53,508 nucleotides of DNA from Escherichia coli. GTDB lineage: Bacteria > Pseudomonadota > Gammaproteobacteria > Enterobacterales > Enterobacteriaceae. Positions 8,003-10,138 of this stretch are shown piece by piece (positions within the stretch are counted from its first letter, which is position 1; each line of letters begins with the position of its first letter). A program made the translations under genes and the position numbers. A model generated the notes under the pieces. That model was given only the letters and a program-made list of their open reading frames with translations, made no database searches and had not been told where the DNA came from. Location of the stretch: assembly GCF_003334335.1 (NCBI RefSeq), contig NZ_QOWQ01000033.1; one strand, written 5' to 3'.

Positions 8003-8701
8003 ATGATCATAAAAAAAAGCGGTGGTCGCTGGCAGCTAAGCCTGCTGGCGAGCGTGGTAATCAGTGCCTTTTTTCTCAACACAGCTTACGCCTGGCAACA
8101 AGAATATATCGTTGATACGCAACCCGGACTTTCCACAGAGCGTTACACCTGGGATAGTGATCATCAACCTGATTACAACGATATTTTGTCGCAACGTATT
8201 CAAAGTAGCCAAAGGGCGCTGGGACTGGAAGTCAATCTGGCGGAAGAAACCCCTGTGGATGTGACCAGCAGTATGAGTATGGGCTGGAATTTTCCTTTAT
8301 ATGAACAGGTTACAACCGGCCCGGTCGCGGCATTACATTACGATGGCACAACCACCTCGATGTATAACGAGTTTGGCGACAGTACTACCACGCTGACCGA
8401 TCCGTTATGGCATGCCAGCGTGAGTACCTTAGGCTGGCGTGTTGACTCCCGGCTTGGCGATCTCCGACCCTGGGCGCAAATCAGCTATAACCAGCAATTT
8501 GGCGAGAATATCTGGAAGGCGCAATCAGGCCTGAGCCGGATGACGGCGACAAACCAGAACGGCAACTGGCTGGATGTCACCGTAGGCGCTGATATGTTGC
8601 TCAATCAAAATATTGCCGCCTATGCCGCGCTAACTCAGGCAGAAAATACCACTAATAATAGCGACTATCTGTATACGATGGGGGTTAGCGCCAGATTTTA
8701 A
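8003..8701 (+). CDS. yhjY: small outer-membrane beta-barrel protein with autotransporter-like translocator domain (232 aa)
   Basis: N-terminal signal peptide (LLASVVISAFFLNTAYA), C-terminal aromatic residue (…GVSARF) typical of OMP barrels; ATG at 8003. Confidence 0.85.
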   Translation: MIIKKSGGRWQLSLLASVVISAFFLNTAYAWQQEYIVDTQPGLSTERYTWDSDHQPDYNDILSQRIQSSQRALGLEVNLAEETPVDVTSSMSMGWNFPLYEQVTTGPVAALHYDGTTTSMYNEFGDSTTTLTDPLWHASVSTLGWRVDSRLGDLRPWAQISYNQQFGENIWKAQSGLSRMTATNQNGNWLDVTVGADMLLNQNIAAYAALTQAENTTNNSDYLYTMGVSARF

Positions 8702-8815
8702 CGTAACAGTCACAATTGAAACCATTAAATAACAATAGTTGTGGCGATAGTGGGTGCTAACTTACCAAATAATAAATTTGGTGAATAATTGTCGCGTCAT
8801 TCATTCCTGAACTAA

Positions 8816-8846
8816 GGCATTTCATTCCGTTCTGATGGCATTTCAT
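8816..8846 (+). promoter_or_regulatory. YpdB (LytTR response regulator) binding site: direct repeat GGCATTTCAT-N11-GGCATTTCAT
   Basis: Two perfect 10-bp direct repeats 11 bp apart, about 85 bp upstream of the yhjX ATG; matches the published YpdB motif as I recall it. Confidence 0.75.
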
Positions 8847-8929
8847 GCCGTTTTTCCCCAGGCATAAAGTGCACTTCGTTATGGTTGTCGGCAGAGATTT
8901 TTCCTTTTTATTACTGCAGGAATACTGCC

Positions 8930-10138
8930 ATGACACCTTCAAATTATCAGCGTACCCGCTGGCTGACACTCATCGGTACTATCATTACCCAGTTTGCGCT
9001 GGGGTCGGTTTATACCTGGAGCCTGTTTAATGGCGCGCTTTCCGCCAAGCTGGATGCGCCGGTAAGCCAGGTCGCTTTCTCTTTCGGCTTGTTAAGTCTG
9101 GGGCTGGCAATTTCGTCTTCTGTTGCGGGCAAATTACAGGAACGTTTTGGCGTTAAACGCGTCACCATGGCTTCCGGCATTTTGCTGGGATTAGGCTTCT
9201 TCCTGACAGCGCATTCTGACAACCTGATGATGCTGTGGTTAAGCGCCGGTGTGCTGGTGGGACTGGCAGATGGCGCGGGTTATCTGCTGACGCTCTCTAA
9301 CTGTGTGAAGTGGTTCCCGGAGCGTAAAGGTCTGATCTCCGCGTTCGCTATCGGTTCTTATGGTCTGGGTAGCCTGGGTTTCAAATTTATCGACACGCAG
9401 CTGCTGGAAACGGTCGGTCTGGAAAAAACCTTTGTGATTTGGGGAGCGATTGCGCTGTTGATGATTGTTTTCGGCGCAACGTTAATGAAAGACGCACCAA
9501 AACAGGAAGTGAAAACCAGCAATGGTGTGGTGGAGAAAGATTACACGCTGGCAGAGTCGATGCGTAAACCGCAGTACTGGATGTTAGCGGTAATGTTCCT
9601 GACCGCCTGCATGAGCGGCCTGTACGTGATTGGGGTAGCGAAAGATATCGCCCAAAGTCTGGCACACCTTGATGTGGTTTCCGCAGCCAATGCAGTCACT
9701 GTTATTTCCATCGCCAACCTTTCAGGTCGTCTGGTGCTGGGTATTCTGTCTGACAAAATCGCCCGTATCCGTGTTATTACCATTGGTCAGGTGATATCGC
9801 TGGTGGGTATGGCGGCCCTGCTGTTTGCACCATTGAATGCAGTGACGTTCTTTGCAGCGATTGCCTGCGTGGCATTTAACTTTGGCGGCACTATTACCGT
9901 CTTTCCGTCACTGGTCAGTGAGTTCTTTGGCCTCAATAACCTGGCGAAAAACTACGGTGTGATTTATCTCGGTTTCGGTATCGGTAGCATTTGTGGTTCG
10001 ATTATCGCCTCACTGTTTGGCGGCTTCTATGTGACCTTCTACGTGATTTTCGCCCTGCTGATTCTGTCATTGGCGCTTTCTACGACGATTCGTCAGCCAG
10101 AGCAGAAAATGTTGCGTGAGGCGCATGGCTCCCTTTAA
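8930..10138 (+). CDS. yhjX: MFS transporter YhjX (oxalate/formate antiporter-like; pyruvate-responsive)
   Basis: 12-TM MFS profile starting MTPSNYQRTRWLTLIGTIITQFALGSVYTWSLFN; ATG at 8930. Confidence 0.92.
   Translation: MTPSNYQRTRWLTLIGTIITQFALGSVYTWSLFNGALSAKLDAPVSQVAFSFGLLSLGLAISSSVAGKLQERFGVKRVTMASGILLGLGFFLTAHSDNLMMLWLSAGVLVGLADGAGYLLTLSNCVKWFPERKGLISAFAIGSYGLGSLGFKFIDTQLLETVGLEKTFVIWGAIALLMIVFGATLMKDAPKQEVKTSNGVVEKDYTLAESMRKPQYWMLAVMFLTACMSGLYVIGVAKDIAQSLAHLDVVSAANAVTVISIANLSGRLVLGILSDKIARIRVITIGQVISLVGMAALLFAPLNAVTFFAAIACVAFNFGGTITVFPSLVSEFFGLNNLAKNYGVIYLGFGIGSICGSIIASLFGGFYVTFYVIFALLILSLALSTTIRQPEQKMLREAHGSL

Follow-up and report, generated by a model that had tools for sequence, protein, structure and literature searches.

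The window analysed here is a 53,508-bp stretch of Escherichia coli DNA. Two open reading frames on the + strand, yhjY (8003–8701) and yhjX (8930–10138), are separated by a gap of 228 bp with 39% G+C, and a pair of direct repeats is located in this gap. An exact duplicate had been proposed in a sequence-only reading of the same DNA, and the proposal was confirmed. From 8816 to 8846 the order is GGCATTTCAT, TCCGTTCTGAT (11 nt) and GGCATTTCAT, and the two copies occupy 8816–8825 and 8837–8846 with an 11-bp spacer. The repeats are on the coding strand, and 83 nt separate the end of the second copy from the yhjX ATG at 8930. The similarity of the pair extends past 10 nt, since GGCATTTCAT-T-CCGTT and GGCATTTCAT-G-CCGTT are equal at 15 of 16 positions. 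An automated repeat search did not return the GGCATTTCAT pair, and a match in a 25-bp register was returned instead; reading the sequence directly and searching it for the pattern confirmed the pair. The sites are named here as in the published work described below. Site A (8816–8828, + strand) is the high-affinity GGCATTTCAT with the conserved extension TCC, and site B (8837–8854, + strand) is the low-affinity, promoter-proximal GGCATTTCAT with the conserved extension GCCGTTTT. The variable part of the spacer (8829–8836, + strand) holds the start-to-start spacing at 21 bp, which is about two helical turns.

The downstream gene had been read as yhjX, and this is also its annotation in RefSeq records with 100% identity across this 1 kb. 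The regulated gene (8930–10138, + strand) encodes an MFS transporter of the oxalate/formate antiporter family, and YhjX scores 478 bits against TIGR00890 (cut-off 375). The RefSeq name of YhjX is "L-lactate MFS transporter", and the equivalog model NF049980 (SfMCT) is passed narrowly, with 342 bits against 320. In the experimental literature, YhjX is treated as a pyruvate importer or exporter whose function is unsettled.

Several other features are present in the window. According to Rfam matches above the gathering score, a cspA thermoregulator 5′ UTR (621–1048, − strand), a tRNA annotated as tRNA-Pro (12245–12318, + strand), naRNA4 (12415–12494, − strand), ES036 (14730–14772, − strand) and the rdlD antitoxin RNA beside ldrD (20568–20633, − strand) are located there. 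A tandem duplication of the 13-mer CACACTTTTTCCC precedes eptB (10309–10321 and 10322–10334), and a third copy, GCACTTTTTCCC, is found at 10389–10400, about 60 nt before the eptB start. A sigma-E-type promoter is known for eptB, and this last copy may overlap it. The window and the genome NZ_CP128939.1 are collinear with sparse SNPs, and the two diverge at 1–570 and at about 48,900–50,000, where NZ_CP128939.1 carries copies of IS150 and IS1. Over its first 300 nt, the window resembles an IS transposase gene in reverse orientation.

The repeat by itself, 10 nt in a 53-kb window, is only weakly remarkable and statistically unexceptional. According to the pattern search of both strands, the two copies are the only exact occurrences of GGCATTTCAT in the whole window. 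Seven exact direct repeats of 10 bp or more with a spacing of 10–40 bp are present in the window, against about 1.6–1.9 expected, and most of the seven are within coding DNA. The expectation of one such repeat in this 228-bp intergenic region is about 0.007. When up to one mismatch was allowed, 13 matches were found against 6.2 expected; 13 was reached by 2 of 100 shuffles, and the enrichment is not clear. Exact direct repeats of 10–11 bp with a spacing of 16–33 bp were also observed at 16429, 17534, 21996, 43880 and 48732, mostly in coding sequence (dppC, dppD, bcsG and yhjG), and the one near 48732 is non-coding. As the repeat statistics are weak, the case rests on the identity with a published site and on conservation.

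The sequence-only reading had taken the repeat for the motif bound by the LytTR regulator YpdB. This motif agrees with the published one: YpdB binds a GGCATTTCAT direct repeat in the promoter PyhjX, and this sequence is printed in the paper of Behr, Heermann and Jung (2016; PMC4847170). Without its G/C clamps, the oligonucleotide used there for SPR has a 58-nt core that corresponds to 8793–8850 of the window at 58 of 58 nt with no mismatch. In the A-site mutant oligonucleotide, exactly the 10 nt of 8816–8825 are swapped (PMC4847170); thus, site A is the distal copy and site B is the proximal copy. The KD values are 1.2 nM for the high-affinity site and 21 nM for the low-affinity site (PMC4847170). 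These are assigned to A and B, respectively, because the B-mutated fragment keeps the slowly dissociating interaction (PMC4847170). The two sites are identical 10-mers with an affinity gap of about 20-fold, which the authors ascribe to the flanking nucleotides (PMC4847170). YpdB-D53E, a variant that causes constitutive expression, does not bind at all once site A is mutated, and the occupation of site B needs site A (PMC4847170). Both protein forms of YpdB are monomeric in solution. In the published model, binding is cooperative and proceeds sequentially from A to B, and the sites are cleared rapidly from B to A, which would result in pulsed expression (PMC4847170). These comparisons indicate that the feature is already known, and that a documented regulatory site of E. 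coli was correctly re-identified. For E. coli K-12, the YpdB site of the yhjX promoter was reportedly defined in a primary paper by Fried, Behr and Jung from 2013.

Within E. coli, the 31-bp element was found in 5387 of 5426 complete genomes when at least 28 consecutive identical bases were required. It occupies a median of one place per genome (maximum two), and plasmid-borne copies number zero. In 5396 genomes the 58-bp module could be detected, against 3986 and 4194 for the 58-mers directly upstream and directly downstream of it, respectively. Variation is much greater in the intergenic DNA around the module than in the module itself. According to a preprint, natural variants of the yhjX promoter differ from MG1655 by up to 27 SNPs. 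In the variants inspected here, the first G of site A is changed to T and positions 8795 and 8797 are also changed; the TTCATTCC cores are untouched. Two insertions were observed as separate cases. In E. coli B1172 (L087, NZ_CP120549.1), an IS4-family element annotated as ISVsa5 is present at 170–1500, which corresponds to about 8871–8879 of the window. This insertion splits the YpdB sites from the predicted −10 element described below, and the operator is about 1.3 kb away from yhjX. In strain CP131_Sichuan, IS1 is located somewhere within the 1-kb query 8400–9400, which runs from the end of yhjY across the intergenic region into the start of yhjX.

Conservation between genera was analysed by a scan of one genome per species. 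Of the 303 relatives of yhjX that it gave, the 80 best loci were used further (84–99% protein identity, about 25 genera). Position counts were made on 79 unique Enterobacteriaceae sequences upstream of yhjX. The two motif copies are exactly 21 bp apart in all 80 of these best loci, and the spacer sequence varies. The distance from the end of site B to the start codon is 67–84 nt across the same best 80 of 303. In site A, GCA-TTCATTCC is kept in 78–79 of the 79 sequences, and in site B, GCA--TCATGCC-TTTT is kept to the same extent (78–79 of 79). At the first position of the E. coli motif, G and T alternate across the 79 sequences. The conserved core of the motif reads GCAnTTCATkCC rather than GGCATTTCAT. 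The pattern TTCAT[TG]CC-N13-TTCAT[TG]CC occurs 138 times upstream of yhjX and 0 times elsewhere on both strands of the 943 kb of those loci. This comparison adds a functional module at about 8796–8854, which is wider than the two 10-mers. We assign the repeats at 8816–8846 as the YpdB operator of the pyruvate-responsive yhjX promoter with a probability of about 95%.

The upstream part of this module is a third element, named here site 0 (8796–8807, + strand). Its sequence, GTCATTCATTCC, is related to the motif, and it is located exactly 21 bp upstream of site A. The core TTCATTCC is common to site 0 and site A. In the 79 sequences, G8796, TTCAT (8800–8804) and C8806 are invariant (79/79), and the remaining positions are kept in 60–76; the conservation of site 0 equals that of sites A and B. 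Upstream of 8795, the conservation of the yhjX upstream regions collapses. Site 0 is inside the SPR oligonucleotide of PMC4847170 and is unnamed in that paper, where only two sites are described and the word "third" is absent.

Downstream of site B, a degenerate copy of the motif, GCATAAAGTGC, is located at 8862–8872, over the predicted −35/spacer region. The inverted motif GCATGAAATGC was found with up to two mismatches within 45 nt downstream of site B in 33 of the 79 sequences, against about 0.4% expected per sequence. The E. coli copy GCATAAAGTGC has two mismatches to the inverted motif. The copy is clear in many other genera and is not conserved in Enterobacter or Lelliottia. As GGCAT/ATGCC is palindromic, the orientation of this copy is set by the central triplet alone. 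Two possible structures were tested by folding, namely a hairpin joining site B to the downstream copy and a structured 5′ UTR, and neither folds better than shuffled sequences.

The core promoter was predicted from the same alignment. In the predicted −10 element TATGGT (8880–8885, + strand), T8880, A8881 and T8885 are the most conserved positions locally, forming a TAnnnT pattern, and a conserved CAG is present on its 3′ side at 8892–8894. TATGGT and this CAG are the best candidate for the −10 element and the start, and transcription would begin near 8892–8893. With this predicted start, the centres of the three repeats would be at about −50, −71 and −92. The predicted −10 element would set the −35 position at about 8857–8862, immediately 3′ of position 8854, where the conserved part of site B ends. 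A mapped yhjX start was found neither in a full-text literature search nor in the supplements of two genome-wide TSS studies. Two other promoters were weighed. A consensus promoter scan gave a single sigma-70-like site at 8762–8789, upstream of the operator. It was rejected as the yhjX promoter, because it is at the chance level (one found, 1.0 expected) and is located in DNA not conserved between genera, and the activator site would fall downstream of its start. An alternative −10 element, CATAAA/TAAAGT at 8863–8870, would place site B over the −35 position; it is less likely, being unconserved in Enterobacter and Lelliottia. The ribosome-binding region of yhjX, GCAGGA (8917–8922, + strand), is conserved and is located 8 nt before the ATG. 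A near-palindrome, TATTACTGCAGGAATA at 8909–8924, overlaps the ribosome-binding site and contains GGA. CsrA is reported to act positively on YhjX.

The regulator genes are not linked to this promoter. The sequence-only reading had placed the genes of YpdB outside the window, and a tblastn search with YpdA and YpdB found nothing in the whole window. The annotation of the collinear genome NZ_CP128939.1, which matches the window without mismatch over the stretch of about 5–10 kb, contains no kinase or LytTR gene across window positions 1–50,000. In NZ_CP128939.1, ypdB and ypdA are located at 1,405,903–1,408,349 and yhjX is located at 227,119–228,327. The distance in that genome, 1,177,576 bp, agrees with the claim of a distant regulator. 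YpdB consists of a receiver domain (Response_reg, E = 3e-24) and a LytTR domain (E = 5e-34). In the best 80 of the 303 loci, all from Enterobacteriaceae, no homologue of YpdA or YpdB was found within 6 kb of yhjX. In Yersinia and Aeromonas, the putative target adjoins the two-component genes (Behr et al., 2017). The further claim that yhjX is the single target gene is disputed. It corresponds to the view of the Jung laboratory, including PMC4847170, but pbpC is cited as a further target: a 2026 paper cites Miyake et al. (2019) for pbpC regulation by PyrSR, the newer name of YpdAB. In the UPEC strain UTI89, the active pair at the yhjX promoter is reportedly the non-cognate BtsS–YpdB, and acid and serine induce this promoter via pyruvate and BtsS–YpdB.

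The response of the promoter to pyruvate is well documented. Expression of yhjX increases 678-fold with 3 mM pyruvate (PMC7660256), and the system is activated by pyruvate at about 0.6 mM or more (Behr et al., 2017). In the preprint on natural yhjX promoter variants, expression was detected in pyruvate only and depended on its concentration. A mechanism has been published for E. coli K-12. External pyruvate of at least about 0.6 mM activates the membrane kinase YpdA, a role taken in UPEC by the paralogous BtsS, and YpdB is then phosphorylated at Asp53. A phospho-YpdB monomer takes the distal site A (8816–8825) first, and its occupation lets a second YpdB molecule take the proximal site B (8837–8846). 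YpdB at site B then recruits RNA polymerase to a promoter that has no usable −35 element, and the fast vacating of site B results in pulsed expression of YhjX. We would add to this that, in the conserved module 8796–8854, the three TTCATkCC cores, 21 bp apart, would be on one face of the helix. The module would end just upstream of the −35 position for the predicted −10 element at 8880–8885. YpdB binding and pyruvate activation are published for MG1655 and UTI89 only.

Other explanations of the repeats were weighed against this assignment. The repeats might be bound by the paralogous LytTR regulator BtsR (YehT), instead of or besides YpdB, and we consider this very improbable. The BtsR motif is not known to be related in sequence to the YpdB motif. 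The two systems are functionally linked, and the activity of BtsS/BtsR lowers yhjX expression under some conditions (Behr et al., 2017); the induction of yhjX in UPEC also depends on BtsS. However, in UPEC BtsS reportedly works through YpdB at this promoter, and a btsS ypdB double mutant shows no activity of the yhjX promoter. In addition, YpdB does not bind PyjiY, the target of BtsR, which was used as the no-binding control (PMC4847170). Alternatively, the repeat might have no regulatory role and have arisen by chance, or be structural, for example as the terminator of yhjY. Seven close, exact direct repeats of 10 bp in the window and the fact that GGCATTTCATGCC is itself a small palindrome would suit such an origin, but no terminator-like site is present and single-strand folding is no better than that of shuffled sequences (z = −1.24). 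The repeats are also deeply conserved amid otherwise variable intergenic DNA, and the binding of YpdB is published (PMC4847170). Because of this conservation and the published binding data, the chance or structural reading is refuted, and we give it a negligible probability.

A different question is whether the YpdB operator is limited to two sites. Site 0 may be a third, weak contact of YpdB that loads site A, and the two-site AB–BA model would then be incomplete. The conservation of site 0 in the 79 sequences at the level of A and B, its 21-bp phase and its TTCATTCC core point to this three-part operator. When 153 kb was scanned for motif pairs with up to three mismatches, only A + B and site 0 + A were detected. 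The gap of about 20-fold between the identical 10-mers A and B, which was attributed to flanking nucleotides (PMC4847170), is also consistent with it; site 0 could contribute to the high affinity of A over B. However, mutation of site A abolished the binding of YpdB-D53E with site 0 and site B intact (PMC4847170), and thus site 0 cannot bind alone. The 5′ half of site 0 (GyCA) is out of register with GCAT. Site 0 could instead bind another factor or act as a bending element, and Fried 2013 may have described it already. We hold the three-part operator as a tentative reading, possible but somewhat doubtful. If site 0 contacts YpdB, the sequential-binding model for this LytTR regulator needs a third step. 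A more elaborate arrangement is unlikely: an array of three repeats (8796–8807, 8816–8828 and 8837–8854), 21 bp apart, together with the inverted copy over the core promoter in many genera, on which a higher-order complex of YpdB would be nucleated at site 0 and site A, and in which the downstream copy could help to shut off the promoter and thereby give a pulse. Such an array, if true, would explain the affinity gap between the identical 10-mers.

The YpdB operator at 8816–8846 can be compared with known systems. Relative to the YpdB (PyrR) site of K-12, the locus, the 58-nt sequence, the motif, the 11-nt spacer and the downstream gene are the same, and the site itself is without difference. 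The source strain is not strictly K-12, and sparse SNPs and differences at the two ends set the window apart from the best-matching RefSeq record. The site serves chiefly as a positive control for the sequence-only reading. The BtsR (YehT) site of the yjiY/btsT promoter resembles the yhjX site in its pyruvate-sensing LytS/LytTR paralogue, its main target, which is an unlinked transporter gene, and its direct-repeat operator (Behr et al., 2017). It differs in that its motif is another one, the pyruvate affinity of the BtsR system is high and not low (Behr et al., 2017), and the site is outside the window. Other LytTR operators, namely AgrA P2/P3 of S. aureus and those of ComE, PlnC/PlnD and VirR, consist of two repeats of 9–11 nt that are 11–13 nt apart (PMC4847170). 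They are located upstream of an activator-dependent promoter and are bound cooperatively (PMC4847170). The yhjX repeats, with 10 nt each and a spacer of 11 nt, are in accordance with the general spacing of LytTR operators. The operators of this family have no common consensus sequence (PMC4847170), and the yhjX operator region is distinguished by a third conserved element in phase with the two repeats.
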